A stretch of 48,642 bases of DNA from Acidobacteriota bacterium (GCA_031394595.1 JANNTZ010000269.1:1-48642); one strand, 5' to 3'; shown: positions 4,219 to 48,642, numbered from the stretch's first letter. Notes: generated by a model not told the origin, from the letters alone. Made by a program: numbers and translations.

Positions 4219-4295
4219 TGGTGCGCCCAGCAAGATTCGAACTTGCGACCTTCGGATTCGTAGTCCGACGCTCTATCCATCTGAGCTATGGGCGC
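4219..4295 (-). tRNA. tRNA-Arg(ACG)
   Basis: Minus strand GCGCCCATAGCTCAGATGGATAGAGC-GTCGGACTACGAATCCGA-AGGTCGCAAGTTCGAATCTTGCTGGGCGCACCA; cloverleaf, anticodon ACG, encoded CCA. Confidence 0.97.
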
Positions 4296-8679: not shown

Positions 8680-9974
8680 CGGACCTCCTCCCGCCGCGCG
8701 CCGCGGCGCGACAGCAGGCGGGCCGCCGCCGGCGTGAGACGTGCGGGCCGCGTCCGCGTGGGCGGGGCGGTGTCCGTCGTGGCGGCGCCGGCCTCCGCGC
8801 CACGGGTCGCCAGGCCAAACAGCCGGATGAACCCCTCGGCGTCCTTCGGGTTGAAGCCGTCACCCATGTCGAAACTGCCGAGCCGGGCGTCATAAAGCGA
8901 TCGGTCGGCGCTGCGCCCCAGCACGACGACCGTGCCACGCTGCAGGCGCAGCGTCACCTCGCCGGTCACCGATTCCTGGGTGGCGGCGACGAACGCGTCG
9001 AGTGCCCGGCGCAGCGGCGTGTACCAGAGTCCGTCGTAGACCAGCTCGGCATAGCGCAGGGCCAGGCGCTGCTTCTCGTGCATGGTGGCGCGATCGAGAC
9101 AGAGCGCCTCGATCTCCCGGTGCGCCTGCGACAGGACCGTGCCGGCCGGGGTCTCGTAGACGCCACGCGACTTGATCCCGACCAGGCGGTTCTCGACCAG
9201 ATCGGCGCGCCCGACACCGTGCATGCCGGCGATCCGGTTGAGGTTCGCGATCAGCCGGACCCCGTCGAGGGTCACGCCGTTGAGGGTGACCGGGACGCCG
9301 CGCTCGAACCCGACCCGCACCTCGGCCCCGTCGGCGGGGGCGGTCCGGGGGCCGCGCGTCAGCAGATACATCGACTCGGGCGGCGGCTGTGCCGGGTCCT
9401 CGAGCGGTCCGCCTTCGTGGCTGACATGCCAGAGGTTGCGATCGCGGCTGAAGATCGAGGCCCGGGTCACCGGGACCGGGATGCCGCGGGCTGCGGCGTA
9501 GTCGAGCGCCTCCTCGCGGGACCGGATCTCCCATTCGCGCCACGGCGCGATCACCTTGAGGTGCGGCGCCAGCGACTGATAGACCAGCTCGAAGCGGACC
9601 TGGTCGTTCCCCTTGCCGGTGCAGCCGTGGACCAGCGCATCGGCCCCCGACTCCAGGGCGACACGCACCTGCTCGCGGGCGATCACCGGCCGGGCCAGCG
9701 CGGTGCCGAGAAGGTAGCCGTTCTCGTACACCGCCCCGGCGCGCAGAGCCGGCCAGATCTGCTCCTCGACGAACGCCTGCCGCAGGTCGCGGCGCACGAA
9801 TCCGTCGGCGCCGGCGGCGCGCGCACGTTCTTCGAGGCCATCGAGTTCCTCGGCCTGCCCGACATCGGCGACCATCGCGATCACCGCACAGCGGTAGTGG
9901 TCCTTCAGCCACGGGATGATGATCGACGTGTCCAGTCCGCCGGAGTAGGCCAGCACCGCCCGCTTGACGTGCAT
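8676..9974 (-). CDS. argG: Argininosuccinate synthase
   Basis: LAYSGGLDTS, HGCTGKGNDQVRFE, GIKSRGVYETP; ATG 9974 with RBS aggagg; TGATG overlap with argD. Confidence 0.97.
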   Translation of the reverse strand: MHVKRAVLAYSGGLDTSIIIPWLKDHYRCAVIAMVADVGQAEELDGLEERARAAGADGFVRRDLRQAFVEEQIWPALRAGAVYENGYLLGTALARPVIAREQVRVALESGADALVHGCTGKGNDQVRFELVYQSLAPHLKVIAPWREWEIRSREEALDYAAARGIPVPVTRASIFSRDRNLWHVSHEGGPLEDPAQPPPESMYLLTRGPRTAPADGAEVRVGFERGVPVTLNGVTLDGVRLIANLNRIAGMHGVGRADLVENRLVGIKSRGVYETPAGTVLSQAHREIEALCLDRATMHEKQRLALRYAELVYDGLWYTPLRRALDAFVAATQESVTGEVTLRLQRGTVVVLGRSADRSLYDARLGSFDMGDGFNPKDAEGFIRLFGLATRGAEAGAATTDTAPPTRTRPARLTPAAARLLSRRGARREEVR

Positions 9975-39562: not shown

Positions 39563-39566
<4 letters not shown>

Positions 39567-40693
39567 CGCCCGCCTCCGGTCACGGCATCCGTGCGTCGTC
39601 CGCCGGCCGGGGCGGCTGCCATCGCCCGGCGCACCGCGGCACCCATCTCGGACGTCGAGAGCTTCTTTTCCCCGCCACGCGCCAGGTCGGTGGTCCTGGC
39701 GCCGTCGTGCAGGACCCGGTCGACCGCCGCTTCGATCCGGGCGGCCGCCTCCGGCAGATGCAGCGAGTGACGCAGCAGCAGCGCCGCCGACAGGATCGCC
39801 GCCAGCGGGTTGGCGATGCCACGGCCGGCGATGTCGGGCGCCGATCCGTGCACCGGCTCGTAGAGCCCCGGCCCCTCGCCCAGGCTCGCCGATGGCAGCA
39901 TGCCGATCCCGCCGGCCAGCATCGCCGCTTCGTCGCTCAGGATGTCGCCGAACAGGTTTTCGGTCAGGATGACGTCGAAGTCCGCCGGACGCGCCACGAG
40001 CTGCATCGCCGCGTTGTCGACGTACAGGTGGTCGAGCCGGACATCCGGATAGCCCTTGGCGGTTTCCTCCACCACCTCGCGCCACAACTGCGAGGTTTCC
40101 AGGATGTTGGCCTTGTCCACCGAAGTCACCTGTCGCTTCCGGCCGCGGGCGGTCTCGAACGCCACCCGGGCGATCCGCCGGATCTCGCCGGCGCTGTAGG
40201 TCATGGTGTTGCGCGCCCGGCGTCCCTCGCCGGTCCCCTCGAGACCCCGCGGCGTCCCGAAGTAAAGGCCACCGGTCAGCTCGCGCACGATCACCAGGTC
40301 GGTGCCACCGACGATCTCGGGCCGCAGGGGTGAAGCGCCGATCAACGCCGGGTGCAACCGCACCGGCCGGAGATTGGCGAACACTCCCAGCTCCTTGCGC
40401 AGCCCCAGGAGTGCCTGCTCCGGCCGCTGATCGCGCGGCAGCCGGTCGTGCCGTTGGCTGCCGACGGCCCCCAGCAGCACGGCATCCGCGCCGCGGGCGG
40501 CGGCGAGCGTCGGCTTCGGTAATGGCGCCCCGTCGCGATCGATCGCCGCCCCGCCGACGGCATGCTCCACCAGATCGAGACGCACCCCTTCCGAAGCGGC
40601 GGCTTCGCGCAGAACCTGCGCCGCCTCGGCGATCACCTCGGGGCCGATGCCGTCCCCCGGCAGGAGGACGATCCGGCGTGCCGTCTCAGGCAC
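39563..40693 (-). CDS. leuB: 3-isopropylmalate dehydrogenase
   Basis: [54 protein letters not shown]. Confidence 0.96.
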
Positions 40694-41189
40694 TCGATCC
40701 CCCTGTCGTCTGCCTCAGCACGTAGGGCAGCAGCCCTCCCGCCTCGAGGATGTCGAGGGCGAAGGGGGTGAACGGCACGTAGCCGAATGCCGTGCCGCGG
40801 CTGAGGTTGCGCACCACGCCGTCCTTCAGGTCGATCTCGACCAGGTCACCGTCGCGGATCCCGTCCACCGCCGCGGGGCATTCGATGGCGAGAAAGCCGT
40901 TGTTGAGGGCGTCCCGGAAGAAGGCCGGGGCGAACGATTTCGCCACGACCGCGGCCACCCGGGCACTCGCGAGGGCCCGCACCGCCGCCTCGCGCGCCGC
41001 CCCGGAACCGAACTCCTGGCCGCTCACGATGATGTCGCCGCGAGCGGTGCGTTCGGCGAATTCGGGGTCGATCCCGGCCATGGCGTGACGGCCGAGGTCG
41101 GCCTCGCCGGCCGATCCCTGGAAGCGCGCCGGAAGGATCTCCTCCGTGGTGATACGGTCCCGTTCGAAAAGGTGCGCTCTGCCTCTCAT
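40686..41189 (-). CDS. leuD: 3-isopropylmalate dehydratase small-subunit homolog (LeuD/HacB type) with degenerate catalytic motifs
   Basis: RBS aaggag; overall LeuD fold pattern ending ILEAGGL; GSSRE is replaced by GAARE and ARIFxRN by APAFFRD. Confidence 0.75.
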   Translation of the reverse strand: MRGRAHLFERDRITTEEILPARFQGSAGEADLGRHAMAGIDPEFAERTARGDIIVSGQEFGSGAAREAAVRALASARVAAVVAKSFAPAFFRDALNNGFLAIECPAAVDGIRDGDLVEIDLKDGVVRNLSRGTAFGYVPFTPFALDILEAGGLLPYVLRQTTGGSSA

Positions 41190-41340
41190 GATGGTCGTCT
41201 CCTTGCGGGCCTCCATCCCGCTCCGGCCGCCGCTCCGGCGGCGGCCGTTCGAAACCGCGGTCTTTCCTGCCGCCGGCGGCCGGCCCGGGAACAACCCCGT
41301 GCCAGCCTCCCCCTCCGGCGGCAGAAAGGACCGCGGGGGA

Positions 41341-41398
41341 AAAATTAAGCGCAGGCCATGGTGTCCGGCTGCCCTGAGGCTGGCCGGACCGGCCTGCG

Positions 41399-41400
<2 letters not shown>
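41341..41400 (-). terminator. Terminator-like hairpin directly after leuA
   Basis: agcgcaggcc...ggcctgcgct outer stem with an inner gtccggc/gccggac stem, followed by TAATTTTT on the minus strand. Confidence 0.55.
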
Positions 41401-43114
<1,714 letters not shown>

Positions 43115-43277
43115 CGAGGCTTCCCCGCCTTCACCCGATGGGGCTGATATACGGGTCGATCCGGTGTCGGTCAACTTGATTCTCCCCGGCCTGCGCCACG
43201 AGTTTCACATTACGGCACTCGCGTCACCAAGCCGTCACGCGTGCTCCGGAGTCGCTCGAACGACAAACGTGACGCGT

Positions 43278-43307
43278 ACTTTACACTACTGACCGACCGG
43301 TCGGCAA
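43278..43307 (-). promoter_or_regulatory. Putative leu/ilv promoter TTGCCG-N18-TAAAGT containing a perfect 12-bp palindrome
   Basis: ccgaccggtcgg at 43293-43304 overlaps the -35 and spacer. Confidence 0.45.
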
Positions 43308-43405
43308 GTGGGGTCGGATCCACCCCGACGACGACCCCACGGTCCACATGGCGATACGCCTGGAGAGGCAGTTGTTCCGCAGGCTGCGGCAAGAACGGAC
43401 GGAAG

Positions 43406-43434
43406 TTGACAGAGCGTGGATCGCGTGGTACGTT
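43406..43434 (+). promoter_or_regulatory. Sigma70 promoter TTGACA-N17-TACGTT (extended -10) for the riboswitch operon
   Basis: Perfect -35, 17-nt spacer, TGn before the -10. Confidence 0.7.
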
Positions 43435-43485
43435 GCCGGTGTTGCTTCATGGAGGTGCCCCGAACTTTTAGACATCGACAGCGTC

Positions 43486-43600
43486 CCATCTTATCGAGAG
43501 TGGGGGAGGGACAGGCCCGACGATCCCACGGCAACCGCTCCGGAATACCAGGAGGCCGGTGCCAAGTCCTGCGGGGTTTTTGGCCCCGAAAGATGAGGGA
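43486..43600 (+). ncRNA. SAM-I (S-box) riboswitch
   Basis: Hallmark motifs CTTATCGAGAG..GGAGGGAC.GGCCC.ACGA..CC..GGCAACC...GGTGCCAA.TCC...GAAAGATGAG. Confidence 0.95.
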
Positions 43601-43628
43601 CGGAACGCGAAGACGAATGCTCCCCCGC

Positions 43629-43658
43629 AAACCTCTTCGACGTCTCGAAGAGGTTTTT
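43629..43658 (+). terminator. Riboswitch expression-platform terminator
   Basis: aaacctcttcga-cgtc-tcgaagaggttt-tt: perfect stem with U tract. Confidence 0.85.
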
Positions 43659-43692
43659 CCATTTCAGGGGCACGCGGGGAGAGGAACGGCGC

Positions 43693-44799
43693 ATGACCAA
43701 CGACGACAAGGACAGGCAGCCGGGGCCCGGGACAGGCGGCGGGACGACCGGCGCCCCCGCCGGGGCGGCGACCGGCGGGATCCCGGCCCGCTACTCGCGC
43801 CAGGTCCTGTTCGAGGGGATCGGTGCGGAGGGCCAGACCCGCCTGATGGCGGCGCGTGTGGCGCTGGTCGGTTGCGGTGCCCTCGGCACCGTGCAGGCGT
43901 CGCTCCTGGCGCGCGCCGGGGTCGGGACGCTGCGGATCATCGATCGTGATTTCGTGGAGGAGTCCAACCTCCAGCGTCAGATCCTGTTCGACGAGGACGA
44001 CGTCCGATCGCTCCTCCCCAAGGCGGTGGCCGCCGAAAAGAAACTGCGCGCCGTCAATTCGCTGATCCGGGTCGATGGGATCGTCGACGACCTCAACCCG
44101 GGGAGCGTCCGGCGGCTGCTCGACGGGTTCGACCTGGTCCTCGATGCCACCGACAACTTCGACGCCCGTTTCCTGATCAACGACTACTGCGTGCAGACCG
44201 GGACCCCATGGGTCTACGGCGCCTGCGTCGGCTCGTACGGTCTGTCGTTCCCGGTCATCCCGGGTGACACCGCCTGCCTGCGCTGCGTCTTCGAGACGGC
44301 GCCGCCGCCCGGACTCTCCCCATCCTGCGACACCGCCGGAGTCCTCGGTCCGATCGTCGCCATCATCGCCTCTCTTCAATGCGCCGAGGCGCTCAAGATC
44401 CTGACGGGACGGCGCGAACGTCTCAGCCGGAAGATGAACGTCGTGGACGTTTGGGAGGGACGATATAACATGATCGACCTGCCGCCGCGCGACCCCGGCT
44501 GCCTGTGCTGCGGCAAGCGCGAGTTCTCCTGGCTCGACGGCGCGGCCGGGGCCGACTCGGCGAACCTGTGCGGCCGGAACTCGGTGCAGATCCGGCGCCG
44601 CGATGGCGTCCGGCTCGATCTCGACGAAGTGGCCCGCCGACTGCGACCGCTCGGGAATCTGGAACAGAACAAGTTTCTCCTGCGCGCCCGCATCGATCGT
44701 TTCGAATTGACCGTGTTCGCCGACGGCCGGACCATCGTCGGTGGGACGACCGACGCGGCGGTGGCGCGATCCCTGTACTCGCGTTACGTGGGGAATTGA
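43693..44799 (+). CDS. ThiF/MoeB-family sulfur-carrier adenylyltransferase
   Basis: RYSRQ, GCGALG, DRDFVEESNLQRQ, DATDNF, CLRC, SCDTAGVL, CLCC; no rhodanese domain. Confidence 0.92.
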   Translation: MTNDDKDRQPGPGTGGGTTGAPAGAATGGIPARYSRQVLFEGIGAEGQTRLMAARVALVGCGALGTVQASLLARAGVGTLRIIDRDFVEESNLQRQILFDEDDVRSLLPKAVAAEKKLRAVNSLIRVDGIVDDLNPGSVRRLLDGFDLVLDATDNFDARFLINDYCVQTGTPWVYGACVGSYGLSFPVIPGDTACLRCVFETAPPPGLSPSCDTAGVLGPIVAIIASLQCAEALKILTGRRERLSRKMNVVDVWEGRYNMIDLPPRDPGCLCCGKREFSWLDGAAGADSANLCGRNSVQIRRRDGVRLDLDEVARRLRPLGNLEQNKFLLRARIDRFELTVFADGRTIVGGTTDAAVARSLYSRYVGN

Positions 44800-44839
44800 C
44801 CATGACTCGCCGGGGCGACCGCGAACGGGGGATGGCGCG

Positions 44840-45997
44840 ATGATTTATCTCGACAACGCCGCCACCACCTTCCCCAAGCCGGAGGGGGTTTACCGCGAGA
44901 TGGACCAGTTCGCGCGGAACTCCGCCGCCAACCCGGGGCGCGGCGGGCACCGACGCGCCGTCGAGGCGGAGGCGATGATCGAGGAGACCCGCCGGCTCCT
45001 GGCGCGTCTGTTCAATGCGCCGCGGGCGGAACGGATCGTCTTCGGTCACAACGCCACCGACGGTCTGAACATGGCAATCAAAGGCGTGCTGCGCCCCGGC
45101 GACCACGCCATCACTTCGGTCCTCGAGCACAACTCGGTGTCGCGGCCGCTCAATCGCATGGAGAAGGAAGGCGCCATCACCCTGACCCGCCTGCCGGCGT
45201 CCGCCGATCACCTCATCGACCCGGATGCCGTGACTCGCGCCTGGACATCGAAGACCCGGCTGGTCGCCATCACCCATGCCTCCAACGTGACCGGCACCAT
45301 CCAGCCGGTGGCGGAGATCGGCCGGATCGCCCGCGAACGGGACGGCCTGCTGCTGGTGGACGCCGCCCAGAGCGCCGGGGTGGTGCCGATCGATCTCCAG
45401 AAGGACTCGATCGACCTGCTCGCCTTCACCGGCCACAAGGGACTCCTCGGACCCACCGGTGTCGGCGGCCTGTTCGTCGGCGAGCGCGCCGAGGTCCGGT
45501 GCTGGCGCGAGGGGGGCACCGGCGGCGACTCGACCCGGCCGGTCCAGCCGGAGGAGTTCCCGCATCATCTCGAAGGCGGCACCCCGAACGTCATCGGTCT
45601 CGCCGGCCTGCGCGCCGGCCTGCGCCTGGTCCTCGAGCGCGGCGTGGACAGCATCCTGACGCACGAGCGCGCCATGCTGCGCGAGTTCCAGCAGGCGATC
45701 CGGCGACCCGACCGACTGTCGTGGTACGGCGCCGACCGGGTGATCGCCGGCAAGGACGGCGAGGGCAGGGTCGGCCTGCTCGGCCTCAACGTGACGGGGT
45801 TCGCCCCGGCCGAGGTCGGCGCCATCCTGGACGAGCGGCACGACATCGCGGTGCGACCGGGGTTGCATTGCGCCCCTTATGCCCATCGGCATCTCGGGAC
45901 CTTCCCCCAGGGGACCGTGAGGCTGAGCGTCGGGATTGACACGACCGCGGAACAGATGCGTCAGGCGGCAGCCGCCTTCGACGAGCTGACCGCCTGA
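44840..45997 (+). CDS. Cysteine desulfurase-family (class V PLP) enzyme
   Basis: IYLDNAATTFPKP, EHNSV, HASNVTG, DAAQ, FTGHKGL, EGGTPN, RPGLHCAP (catalytic Cys). Confidence 0.92.
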   Translation: MIYLDNAATTFPKPEGVYREMDQFARNSAANPGRGGHRRAVEAEAMIEETRRLLARLFNAPRAERIVFGHNATDGLNMAIKGVLRPGDHAITSVLEHNSVSRPLNRMEKEGAITLTRLPASADHLIDPDAVTRAWTSKTRLVAITHASNVTGTIQPVAEIGRIARERDGLLLVDAAQSAGVVPIDLQKDSIDLLAFTGHKGLLGPTGVGGLFVGERAEVRCWREGGTGGDSTRPVQPEEFPHHLEGGTPNVIGLAGLRAGLRLVLERGVDSILTHERAMLREFQQAIRRPDRLSWYGADRVIAGKDGEGRVGLLGLNVTGFAPAEVGAILDERHDIAVRPGLHCAPYAHRHLGTFPQGTVRLSVGIDTTAEQMRQAAAAFDELTA

Positions 45998-46070
45998 GAC
46001 GAACACCAACAACGCCGCGGCGCCCACCCCCCACCGGCGCCCGGCTTTTCCGGGAAAGGATGGTCGAGTC

Positions 46071-47414
46071 ATGGGTTTCGTTCTCGGTATGAAGTGCCGC
46101 GAGTGCGGGGCGCACCTGCCGGTGGCCCCGCGGGCGATCTGCGAGGAGTGCTTCGGCCCTCTCGAGATCGTCTACGACTACGACGCCATAAGCCGGCGCG
46201 TCGATCGCGACGCGCTGGTGGCGCGTGGCCGCTCGATGTGGCGCTACCGGGAACTCCTGCCGGCCGGCGACGAAACGATCCTCGGCGCGGAAGTCGGCTT
46301 CACGCCGCTGGTGCGCGCCGACCGTCTGGCCACACGTCTCGGGGCGCGCGAGGTCTACGTCAAGAACGACGCGGTAAACTTCCCCACCCTGTCGTTCAAG
46401 GACCGGGTGGTGTCGGTCGCCCTCACCAAGGCGCGCGAGTTCGGCATGACCACGGTCGGCTGCGCCTCGACCGGCAACCTGGCCAACTCGGTCGCTGCCC
46501 AGGGGACCCGGCACGGATTCGAGACGGCGATCCTGGTCCCGGAGGACCTGGAGCCGGCCAAGATCCTCGGCACCACGGTCTACGGTGCGCGGCTGTTCGG
46601 CATCCGGGGCGACTACGACCAGGTCAACCGGCTGTGCAGCCAAATCGCCGACCGGTTCGGCTGGGGGATCGTCAATGTCAACCTGCGGCCGTTCTACGGC
46701 GAGGGGTCGAAGACGGTCGGCTACGAGATTGCCGAGCAGCTCGGCTGGCGCACCCCGGCGCACGTCGTCTGCTGCATGGCTGGCGGATCGCTGATCACCA
46801 AGATCGCCAAGGCGTTCCAGGAACTGCAGACACTCGGCTGGATCGGCGCCCACCCGGTCCGCTTCCACGGCGCCCAGGCGGCCGGCTGCAACCCGATCGT
46901 CACGGCGGTGAAGGATGGCAGCGGCGAGATCCGCCCCGTCAAGGCGCGCACCATTGCCCGATCGCTCGCCATCGGCAACCCGGCCGACGGCTACTACGCC
47001 GCCCGGGTGATCCGCGACAGCGGCGGTGCCGCCGAGGACGTCACCGACACCGAGATCGTCGAGGGGATCCGCCTGCTGGCGGAGACCGAGGGGATCTTCG
47101 CCGAAACCGCCGGCGGGGTGACCATCGCCGTCGCCCGCAAGCTGATCCAGCAGGGGATCATCCCGCGTCACGATCCGATCGTCCTGGTGGTCACCGGCAA
47201 CGGCCTGAAGACCACCGAGGCGCTGGCCGCCACCGCCGCCGCCTACCCGGTCATCGACCCACGCCTCGACCAGTTCGAACAGGCGGTCGCGACCATGGCA
47301 ACCGGATCGCGGCCTATGGCCGCCGCCACGCCGACCACCATTCGCCCATTGTCACCTTCATCCGGGCCGTCCGTCGTCGGGGTCGTCCCCGCCGCCGCGC
47401 GGCCATCCCACTGA
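46071..47414 (+). CDS. Threonine-synthase-like fold type II PLP enzyme, probably a sulfhydrylase
   Basis: Zn ribbon CRECG..CEECFGPL, PTLSFKDR, CASTGN, EGSKT, LAIGNP.DG, TGNGLK. Confidence 0.88.
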   Translation: MGFVLGMKCRECGAHLPVAPRAICEECFGPLEIVYDYDAISRRVDRDALVARGRSMWRYRELLPAGDETILGAEVGFTPLVRADRLATRLGAREVYVKNDAVNFPTLSFKDRVVSVALTKAREFGMTTVGCASTGNLANSVAAQGTRHGFETAILVPEDLEPAKILGTTVYGARLFGIRGDYDQVNRLCSQIADRFGWGIVNVNLRPFYGEGSKTVGYEIAEQLGWRTPAHVVCCMAGGSLITKIAKAFQELQTLGWIGAHPVRFHGAQAAGCNPIVTAVKDGSGEIRPVKARTIARSLAIGNPADGYYAARVIRDSGGAAEDVTDTEIVEGIRLLAETEGIFAETAGGVTIAVARKLIQQGIIPRHDPIVLVVTGNGLKTTEALAATAAAYPVIDPRLDQFEQAVATMATGSRPMAAATPTTIRPLSPSSGPSVVGVVPAAARPSH

Positions 47415-47424
47415 GGAGGCATTC

Positions 47425-47700
47425 ATGGCCATCCAGGTCCGTATTCCATCCGTCCTGAGGCGCCAGACCAACGGCGACGAATCGGTTGCACTCGAAGGTC
47501 AGACCCTGTCCGACATCCTCGACGGTCTCGAGGATCGCTATGCCGGGCTGAAGGGGAAGCTGCGCGGCCCCGAGGGCGATCTCCGCCGCTTCGTCAACAT
47601 CTACATCAACGACAACGACGTCCGCCTGCTCTCCGGCCCGACTACGCCGGTCAGCGACGGTGACGAGGTGACCATCATCCCGGCGGTCGCGGGCGGATAG
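47425..47700 (+). CDS. MoaD/ThiS/CysO-like ubiquitin-fold sulfur carrier protein
   Basis: RBS gaggagg; VRIP..LR, RRFVNIYIN, C-terminal PAVAGG. Confidence 0.93.
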   Translation: MAIQVRIPSVLRRQTNGDESVALEGQTLSDILDGLEDRYAGLKGKLRGPEGDLRRFVNIYINDNDVRLLSGPTTPVSDGDEVTIIPAVAGG

Positions 47701-47712
47701 CCGGACAGGCTC

Positions 47713-48642
47713 CTAGTCGTCTTTCGGGGTCCTCGCCTCATCCGCGGCGGGATCGGCCGTGGTCGTCTCGGTGCCCGCCGCCGTTTCCGGCTCATCGCCA
47801 CGGGGGCCGAGGCTGCGCAGGTACTCCGCCAGGAGTCCCTGGTCGCGCGACGGCATGTCGATGACCCGGATCGCCGCCTCGTACCGGCCATTCCCCCGAT
47901 CCTCGACCCGGATGACCCGCCCCGACGAGGCGATCGTCCGGCCACCCGGGAGCGCGATGTTGATGTCGATGAGCGACCCCACCGGCAGGGTTCGCTCGGC
48001 CAGGAACAGCAGGCCCCCCTCGCTGAGGTTGAGGGTGGTCAGCGGATGCTGCTCGGTCGCCAGGAGGCAGAACCGGCCGTCGAGTTTCGCGTCGATCCGG
48101 CGGTACGACCGGCGGTTCTGGCCGTACAGGTGCACCTGGTTCTTGCCATGACTCTTGGCGACGTAGAGGGCCGCGTCGGCGCACCGCACCAGGCCGCCGG
48201 GATCGCGCGCGTCGGCCGGGCAGGTCGCCACTCCCATACTGACCGTGATCAAGGCGCCGGGCCGCCCGTCCTCGAGCGGGAAGAGGTGCCGCTCGACGCA
48301 TTCGCGGATCCGCTCCGCCACTTGGTGCGCGCCGGTCTTGCTGGTCGCCGGCAGGATGAGGGCGAACTCCTCGCCGCCGTACCGCGCCGCGACGTCCATC
48401 TTCCGGAGCGAGTCGGTCAGCAGCCGGGACACGATCGCCAGCGCCTGGCTGCCCGCCTCGTGCCCGTGTGCGTCGTTGTGCTGCTTGAAGTCATCGAGAT
48501 CGATCATGACCAGCGACATCGGTGGGTGGTAGCGCTGGCTGCGGTGGACTTCACGCGCCAGGTACTCTCGGAAGTAGCGGTAGTTCCACAACCCGGTCAG
48601 GTCATCGCGGTAGGCCGAGGCCCGCGTCTGCTCGAACAGCTT
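47713..48642 (-). CDS. Diguanylate cyclase with C-terminal PilZ domain (5' end outside the window)
   Basis: DDLTGLWN, DLDDFK..ND..GH, RKMD (RxxD) then RYGGEEF; PilZ RRSYRR...NLSEGG. Confidence 0.9.
   Translation of the reverse strand, partial: KLFEQTRASAYRDDLTGLWNYRYFREYLAREVHRSQRYHPPMSLVMIDLDDFKQHNDAHGHEAGSQALAIVSRLLTDSLRKMDVAARYGGEEFALILPATSKTGAHQVAERIRECVERHLFPLEDGRPGALITVSMGVATCPADARDPGGLVRCADAALYVAKSHGKNQVHLYGQNRRSYRRIDAKLDGRFCLLATEQHPLTTLNLSEGGLLFLAERTLPVGSLIDINIALPGGRTIASSGRVIRVEDRGNGRYEAAIRVIDMPSRDQGLLAEYLRSLGPRGDEPETAAGTETTTADPAADEARTPKDD

Follow-up and report, generated by a model that had tools for sequence, protein, structure and literature searches.

Introduction

In Mycobacterium tuberculosis, the CysM/CysO/MoeZ/Mec system uses a thiocarboxylated ubiquitin-fold carrier to feed a pyridoxal phosphate (PLP) enzyme whose substrate is an O-phospho amino acid. 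A rhodanese domain is part of MoeZ, in line with its NCBIfam name 'adenylyltransferase/sulfurtransferase MoeZ'. Protein-thiocarboxylate homocysteine synthesis occurs in Wolinella succinogenes (HcyS/HcyF/HcyD/MetY), with an operon-encoded E1, an O-acetylhomoserine sulfhydrylase of the Cys_Met_Meta_PP fold and carrier trimming by a JAMM protease, and in Thermus thermophilus a single E1, TtuC, is shared by several carriers. Here we describe a stretch of 48,642 nucleotides from an Acidobacteriota bacterium (GCA_031394595.1 JANNTZ010000269.1:1-48642; the whole stretch is called the window hereafter), in which a predicted SAM-I riboswitch precedes genes for an E1, a cysteine desulfurase, a homologue of threonine synthase (ThrC) and a small carrier ending in Gly-Gly. 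We consider it likely that this operon directs homocysteine synthesis that is repressed by S-adenosylmethionine (SAM), independent of cystathionine and of the MetM/MetO kind known from Streptomyces albulus.

As summarised in two recent accounts, MetM synthesises homocysteine from O-phosphohomoserine and depends on MetO-thiocarboxylate; it is a homologue of threonine synthase and often misannotated as such (bioRxiv 10.1101/2024.10.14.618325; PMC13759103). The GapMind parts list, citing Hasebe et al. 2024 for S. albulus, names the MetO carrier, MoeZ as sulfur ligase, Mec for MetO maturation and MetM (PMC13759103 Table 2; bioRxiv 10.1101/2024.10.14.618325 Appendix 4), the S. albulus enzyme being UniProt A0A059WBP2 (PMC13759103). 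In a further account, a SAM riboswitch is placed upstream of S. albulus metM and cyanobacterial homologues beside a metO-like gene, a carrier-linked one being 51.6% identical to MetM (PMC12172450). The initial annotation of the window had pointed to a MetM/MetO report from Streptomyces, and these three sources attest to it.

In both S. albulus MetM/MetO and the window, a SAM riboswitch precedes a ThrC-homologous enzyme and, next to it, a small carrier ending in Gly-Gly. S. albulus is summarised as using MoeZ and Mec, whereas the window encodes an E1 without a rhodanese match and a TIGR01977-family desulfurase; the search for a JAMM gene came back empty, and trimming of the carrier is not needed. 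Although the carrier matches the chain 3dwg_C at an E value of 2e-23, CysM of M. tuberculosis is CysK/M-like and makes cysteine, whereas the window's enzyme is ThrC-like and predicted to be SAM-controlled, with no Mec found. From the Wolinella system the window differs in its ThrC fold, its presumed O-phosphohomoserine substrate and the lack of any protease found. The enzyme has the fold, the PLP-lysine motif SFKDR and the STGN phosphate loop of ThrC (TIGR00260; PDB 2zsj, 6cgq, 1uim) but falls in a separate clade with 32 clade-specific positions. Like TtuC, the E1 appears to serve several carriers (MoaD, ThiS and MetO) as the only one; unlike TtuC, it lies behind a SAM riboswitch together with its own desulfurase. 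The core of the pathway (SAM-I/MetM/MetO) is, going by the accounts above, already published, contained in GapMind and widespread. What is new against the literature searched is an apparently rhodanese-less E1 with a Cys-bearing, possibly TATA-binding protein (TBP)-like domain, together with a TIGR01977 desulfurase in a riboswitch unit lacking a peptidase; no earlier description of this variant of E1 and desulfurase appeared in that literature, the scope of which did not take in Hasebe et al. 2024 or the GapMind supplements.

Results

A SAM-I leader precedes four co-oriented genes

The operon comprises the following features, in window coordinates.

43406..43434, plus strand: possible sigma-70-type promoter, weak and read by eye (TTGACA 43406-43411, 17-nt spacer, TACGTT 43429-43434)
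43488..43599, plus strand: SAM-I riboswitch aptamer (RF00162; Rfam covariance model)
43629..43666, plus strand: terminator-like hairpin with T-rich tail, putative expression platform (OFF switch; pattern scan and minimum-energy fold)
43693..44799, plus strand: ThiF/MoeB-type E1 adenylyltransferase, 368 amino acids (PF00899)
44840..45997, plus strand: TIGR01977-family cysteine desulfurase, 385 amino acids (PF00266, TIGR01977)
46071..47414, plus strand: candidate MetM-type homocysteine synthase, ThrC homologue with N-terminal Cys-rich ribbon, 447 amino acids (PF00291, TIGR00260)
47425..47700, plus strand: MetO/CysO-like ubiquitin-fold sulfur carrier with C-terminal Gly-Gly, 91 amino acids (PF02597)

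Domain matches confirmed all four gene identities given by the initial annotation, including their common orientation (4/4 on the plus strand) and short gaps of 40, 73 and 10 nt. The aptamer that it had placed upstream of the operon was likewise recovered at full length (all 108 model positions; 90.9 bits, gathering threshold 44.4, E value 1.6e-20) and is the sole SAM-I match across the whole genome. The terminator stood in part. A stem of 12 pairs with a loop of 4 (43629-43656), followed by a T-rich tail, lies between the aptamer, which ends 30 nt earlier, and the first start codon, 37 nt further on, and the hairpin also forms in the minimum-energy fold; the pattern itself, however, is at chance level in this GC-rich region (2 found against a shuffle mean of 1.9, i.e. 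no excess), and it is this placement that makes the hairpin credible. When its 3' arm was blocked, the 5' arm paired with about 43607-43616, a modest alternative pairing. As for the promoter, TTGACA and TACGTT can be read at a 17-nt spacing, but a consensus scan of 43150-48000 returned 0 promoter-like sites because the -10 element matches at 3/6 positions; a promoter at 43406-43434 is plausible but not supported. The leader is thus predicted to be a SAM-I riboswitch with a putative terminator, ligand binding and switching both being predictions from the sequence.

The PLP enzyme groups with carrier-linked enzymes apart from ThrC

The PLP enzyme matched PF00291 (PALP fold) with an E value of 1.3e-68 and the threonine-synthase model TIGR00260 with 278.5 bits (cut-off 167.1), and its named homologues are all annotated 'threonine synthase'. 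The cysteate synthase model TIGR03844 gave 56.7 bits, below its cut-off of 324.9, and the cysKM model 39 bits. The initial annotation had suggested a phylogeny against ThrC and a search for a second thrC. A quick IQ-TREE phylogeny was computed from 62 of 101 collected rows, with every second carrier-linked row left out and all paralogues kept. The carrier-linked enzymes, a group assembled by similarity to the window's enzyme, formed one clan that includes it (Shimodaira-Hasegawa-like approximate likelihood-ratio test, SH-aLRT, 100), apart from the clan of thrB-linked ThrC (100) and a PRK08197-like clan (100). At 32 alignment positions, a residue common to at least 95% of the 82 carrier-linked rows never occurred in the 8 ThrC-type rows, for example SFKDR-VV versus SFKDR-GM after the PLP-lysine motif and STGN-LA versus STGN-TS after the STGN loop.

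The search returned three ThrC-family genes in the genome: that of the window, a copy directly after thrB on contig C247 (cut by the contig end), to which the window's enzyme is about 30% identical, and a PRK08197-type paralogue on contig C57 (1901-3088; 496.9 bits, cut-off 303), which has a Cys ribbon at its N-terminus and adjoins a DsbD-like gene. The PRK08197-type paralogue occurs in nearly all relatives searched (stretches L118-L123 and L126-L130). The related genomes G009, G010, G012, G004 and G007 have no other ThrC-family match at an E value of 1e-30 or below, and it may for this reason be their real threonine synthase.

Related loci link the enzyme to a carrier and to SAM control

In a pattern scan with one genome per species, at least 599 of at least 600 matched stretches encoded relatives of the PLP enzyme, and the best 80 loci were kept. 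These span about 18 named phyla at 53-79% identity. In 71 of the 80, a MetO-like gene follows within 2.5 kb on the same strand, and of the nine without one, three lie on contigs that end within 120 nt. A SAM-I leader stands directly upstream in 48 loci by our own covariance model; an Rfam search of a 20-locus subset found SAM-I in 10. Other sulfur genes accompany the pair in some loci: an E1 is nearby in 21 (8 long and 13 short forms, one of the latter fused to a rhodanese), a CysK/M-like PALP gene in 15, a Prok-JAB peptidase in 9 and TusA in 8. When TusA proteins were used as tblastn queries against the window's genome, two short ones matched weakly on contig C324, and long open reading frames (ORFs) of the TusA cluster matched contig C419. 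A ThrB-like GHMP kinase directly follows the carrier in four loci, a linkage that together with SAM control points to O-phosphohomoserine and methionine rather than to cysteine.

The order leuA / SAM-I - E1 - desulfurase - MetM - MetO is kept in L032, G005 and G008 at 73-82% identity, and six Planctomycetota loci (49-57% identity) carry SAM-I - MetM - MetO - an ORF of about 110 amino acids - E1 - desulfurase. That two phyla keep the set although its order differs speaks for functional coupling of the four genes. The initial annotation had regarded an activator and a desulfurase within the riboswitch unit as unusual. The frequency of nearby E1 genes and the recurrence of E1 and desulfurase in Planctomycetota speak against this, although the proposed loading without a rhodanese does set the unit apart from Streptomyces.

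Two further kinds of ORF were seen in the Planctomycetota operons. The ORF of about 110 amino acids between MetO and E1 (L036 9709-10053, L037 10901-11236, L064 4790-5152, L067 9626-9955, L069 6419-6793 and L074 10263-10589; also L040 8144-8494) is conserved at 50-64% identity, has no Pfam match and contains no cysteine; tblastn found no match to it in the window's genome. Several operons have an ORF of the Uma2 family (putative restriction endonuclease) between E1 and desulfurase (L036 11488-11832, L037 12476-13087, L064 6832-7464, L069 7965-8669). In G009-G012 (L136-L139), a MetO-like carrier (43-48% identity) and a short E1 (37-40%) are separated by about 450 nt, with no MetM or SAM-I in the stretch.

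None of the best 80 loci comes from Streptomyces. A sequence of the actinomycete Nonomuraea gerenzanensis, a mislabelled 11.8-Mb PLSDB record, has a SAM-I leader (69 bits, own model) and then genes for an enzyme 48% and a 91-amino-acid Gly-Gly carrier 45% identical to those of the window, which agrees with the architecture reported for Streptomyces. A protein search seeded with the Nonomuraea enzyme gave only Streptosporangiales among its best 120 matches. Orthology of the window's enzyme to S. albulus MetM is strongly, though indirectly, suggested.

The carrier ends in Gly-Gly and needs no trimming

The carrier matched PF02597 (ThiS family) with an E value of 1.1e-16 and ends in AVAGG followed directly by the stop codon. 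Its best PDB matches were 4n6e_B (9.7e-24) and the above-mentioned 3dwg_C, which we take to be CysO in its M. tuberculosis complex with CysM. Gly-Gly was found at the aligned end in 68 of 68 carriers examined: 36, among them that of the window, stop there, 20 have 1-5 extra residues and 12 have longer extensions, including NIL fusions.

In the window's genome, no Prok-JAB (JAMM) gene was found, either by hidden Markov model (HMM) or by tblastn with nine operon JAMMs of related loci. The initial annotation had likewise noted that the operon has no peptidase to release the product. Mec is, as summarised for S. albulus, a factor of MetO maturation, and because the window's carrier already ends in Gly-Gly, an operon without a peptidase is expected; JAMM genes stand mostly in loci with fused or extended carriers.

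In 24 of the 80 loci the carrier has a NIL domain (PF09383) fused to it or encoded close behind it (for example L033 8709-9239, L038 9288-9800, L041 9275-9787, L054 3326-3853 and L043 3502-3789). By their sequence, NIL-fused carriers would need proteolysis after Gly-Gly, and these loci mostly carry a JAMM gene. The carrier ORFs of L068 and L104 continue for 269 and 346 residues past Gly-Gly into a long downstream frame. In L068 an E1 lies within about 30 nt after the carrier ORF, which may represent a MetO-E1 fusion.

An E1 without a rhodanese match is paired with a TIGR01977 desulfurase

The E1 matched PF00899 over positions 1-237 of 238 (E value 2.8e-75) and had no other Pfam match, rhodanese (PF00581) included; the E1 of L038 does have a rhodanese match. 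It scored 358.6 bits with NF009123, under the cut-off of 510, and 183 bits with the MoeZ model NF005902, far below 647. Its nearest PDB matches were ThiF, Uba4 and MoeB. Among eight aligned orthologues, the GxGxxG motif (G60-G65), Cys195/198, Cys212, Cys270/272/273 and Cys293 are invariant, with C195/C198 and C270/C273 forming two CxxC pairs; the GxGxxG motif is presumably the Gly-rich nucleotide loop of the family. Cys293, in the motif LCGRN[AS]VQ, lies in a C-terminal extension of about 100 amino acids, which is present in 1747 database proteins, each time behind a ThiF domain. When this domain was folded alone (pLDDT 77.6), its top structural likeness was half of TBP (Foldseek E value 1.4e-2; VIA Z 8.2, root-mean-square deviation 2.5 Å over 80 residues), and no rhodanese fold was among the matches listed for the model. 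We regard the TBP-like fold of the modelled domain as borderline.

The desulfurase matched PF00266 (class-V aminotransferase) with an E value of 1.5e-83 and TIGR01977 ('cysteine desulfurase family protein') with 415.1 bits, above the cut-off of 377; the SclA model gave 319.7 bits, under 525. Translation most likely begins at ATG 44840, where the alignment with homologues sets in, and not at GTG 44741 as given in the ORF list. His199-Lys200 and Cys344 are invariant in ten orthologues, Lys200 presumably being the PLP lysine and Cys344 the persulfide cysteine by analogy with SufS/CsdA. A complex prediction for desulfurase and E1 scored 0.01 (mark 0.32), which counts neither for nor against their pairing.

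The genome encodes ThrB and appears to have a single E1

The genome of the window (G000) is rated 100% complete in 463 contigs. It encodes ThrB (220 bits, above cut-off) in the thrB-thrC pair on C247 and has three matches to MetH-type homocysteine methyltransferases. MetX and MetA gave no match in this genome of 463 contigs, so that, with ThrB present, O-phosphohomoserine is the logical substrate. The initial annotation had proposed looking for metA, metX, metB, metY and a JAMM peptidase. The searches for metA, metX and the peptidase came back empty; three Cys_Met_Meta_PP enzymes are present, none of which reaches an NCBIfam equivalog cut-off. Convergent to one of them, on contig C7 (8147-9382, plus strand; L024 4147-5382; 404 bits, no equivalog), is a second MoaD-like Gly-Gly carrier of 88 amino acids ending in ALSGG (9450-9713, minus strand; L024 5447-5713), which has a flavin amine oxidase gene upstream of it. 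The two could form another carrier/PLP-enzyme pair, or the proximity could be coincidence.

The E1 of the window is the sole ThiF-family gene found in the genome by HMM and tblastn, while MoaD-MoaE is encoded on C415 and ThiS-ThiG on C350. Exactly one E1 was found in seven of eight family-level relatives. G003 and G004 have this pair of E1 and desulfurase too (71-79% identity), with no riboswitch, MetM or MetO nearby. Because the E1 is the only one found beside MoaD-MoaE and ThiS-ThiG, it is probably shared, and E1 and desulfurase together probably constitute the general thiocarboxylation module of the family, common to MoaD, ThiS and MetO; in the lineage of the window this module would then head the methionine operon. 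A dedicated desulfurase, as in the initial annotation, and a dedicated E1 are therefore not what the comparison favours. In G003 the desulfurase after E1 (L147 4096-5219) matches in two frames (query residues 1-313 and 309-375), which suggests a frameshift or an assembly error.

Flanking genes

Divergent from the riboswitch lie leuB (Iso_dh) and leuA (HMGL-like and LeuA_dimer), at 39563-43174 on the minus strand. A GGDEF-PilZ gene (47713-48591, minus strand) converges on the operon, and since its end lies 12 nt after the MetO stop, there is no space for a separate terminator. A tRNA gene (73.1 bits) is found at 4222-4295 on the minus strand.

Discussion

Gene identities, the riboswitch, the clade of the PLP enzyme and the conserved linkage were observed here. 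For the chemistry we draw on analogy with the Streptomyces work as summarised, with ThiF/MoeB, with SufS/CsdA-type desulfurases and with CysM/CysO, which together suggest the following working model. At low SAM, the SAM-I leader would let transcription run past the terminator. The E1 would adenylate the Gly-Gly end of the MetO carrier, while the desulfurase would draw persulfide sulfur from L-cysteine. This sulfur would then reach the carrier, probably via an E1 cysteine, either Cys212 or the C-terminal domain's Cys293. From the resulting MetO-thiocarboxylate, MetM would take sulfur to replace the phosphate of O-phospho-L-homoserine supplied by ThrB. The homocysteine formed would be methylated to methionine by MetH-type enzymes. 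The initial annotation had arrived at the same γ-replacement on O-phosphohomoserine by a ThrC-like enzyme with a thiocarboxylated carrier; it agrees with the MetM/MetO pathway as summarised in the sources above, and the comparative data fit.

Several points weigh against this model. The NCBIfam threonine-synthase model accepts the PLP enzyme (278.5 versus 167.1 bits), and orthology to S. albulus MetM is drawn indirectly, via the Nonomuraea and cyanobacterial homologues. With an assembly in 463 contigs, gene absences are not proven, and the three Cys/Met PLP enzymes would also permit a plant-like cystathionine route from O-phosphohomoserine. Among 13 relatives, all three with MetM lack MetX and MetA, but so do nine of the ten without MetM (one real MetX, no MetA), so that MetM and MetX/MetA are not cleanly complementary. 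Finally, a sole E1 behind a SAM switch would throttle the supply of molybdenum cofactor (Moco) and thiamin, which would require leaky termination or an unseen promoter. Given one SAM-I element and one E1 in the genome, SAM would modulate all carrier loading; read-through may suffice for cofactor demand and derepression for bulk homocysteine. We put forward, tentatively and as less likely than not, that the rhodanese-free E1 (TBP-like domain, Cys293) and the TIGR01977 desulfurase are the lineage's only general thiocarboxylation module, that SAM gates all carrier sulfur (homocysteine in bulk, Moco and thiamin by leaky read-through) and that homocysteine is released without a JAMM peptidase.

The alternatives differ mainly in whom the relay serves and what the PLP enzyme makes. 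That E1 and desulfurase serve MetO only, while MoaD and ThiS use another E1 missed by the assembly, is suggested by the four genes behind one riboswitch, by their joint occurrence in two phyla in differing order and by an assembly of 463 contigs with 1154 withheld bases, in which a second E1 could have gone unnoticed. We think this rather unlikely, because neither HMM nor tblastn found a second ThiF-family gene in a genome rated 100% complete, seven of eight family relatives have a single E1, and the pair stands alone in G003 and G004, away from riboswitch, MetM and MetO. A probably shared E1 would also suit a PLP enzyme that uses free sulfide or another small donor, with carrier, E1 and desulfurase serving Moco, thiamin or tRNA and merely co-transcribed; nine of the 80 loci have no carrier downstream, three of them on contigs ending within 120 nt. 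Such an arrangement is improbable, however, given that the carrier adjoins the enzyme in 71 loci of many phyla and is nearest to CysO-type carriers that give sulfur to PLP enzymes, and that MoaD and ThiS have genes of their own beside MoaE and ThiG. MetM itself is summarised as depending on MetO-thiocarboxylate (bioRxiv 10.1101/2024.10.14.618325).

As to the product, the CysO-type relatives of the carrier among solved structures and the CysK/M-like PALP gene that accompanies the pair in 15 loci would be in keeping with an enzyme that, like CysM with CysO, makes cysteine from O-phosphoserine in dependence on a carrier. The enzyme is nevertheless ThrC-like and not CysK/M-like (39 bits with cysKM), its control is by SAM with no cysteine signal, ThrB-like kinases follow the carrier in four loci, and the separate CysK/M-like genes of the 15 loci suggest that cysteine synthesis is theirs; we judge this reading quite improbable. 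An ordinary second threonine synthase amid unrelated sulfur genes is what the TIGR00260 score above cut-off and the annotation of every named homologue would imply, yet it appears very improbable to us: the genome already has a thrB-linked ThrC and a PRK08197-type paralogue, the window's enzyme shares only about 30% identity with the former and falls in a separate clade with its own residues beside the PLP lysine and in the STGN loop, and its operon is under SAM-I control. We thus favour SAM-repressed homocysteine synthesis by MetM and MetO.

MetM/MetO was described in 2024 in one genus, whereas the carrier-linked, SAM-controlled enzyme is widespread and almost always labelled 'threonine synthase'. 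Because MetM-type enzymes are so common under this label, predictions for Acidobacteriota, Planctomycetota, Verrucomicrobiota and other groups are likely to understate methionine prototrophy. The E1 with its Cys-bearing C-terminal domain, together with the desulfurase, offers a concrete candidate for carrier loading without a rhodanese, and the unit suggests that carriers ending in Gly-Gly can do without a peptidase. If this E1 is truly the only one, the SAM switch would bear on Moco and thiamin synthesis as well.

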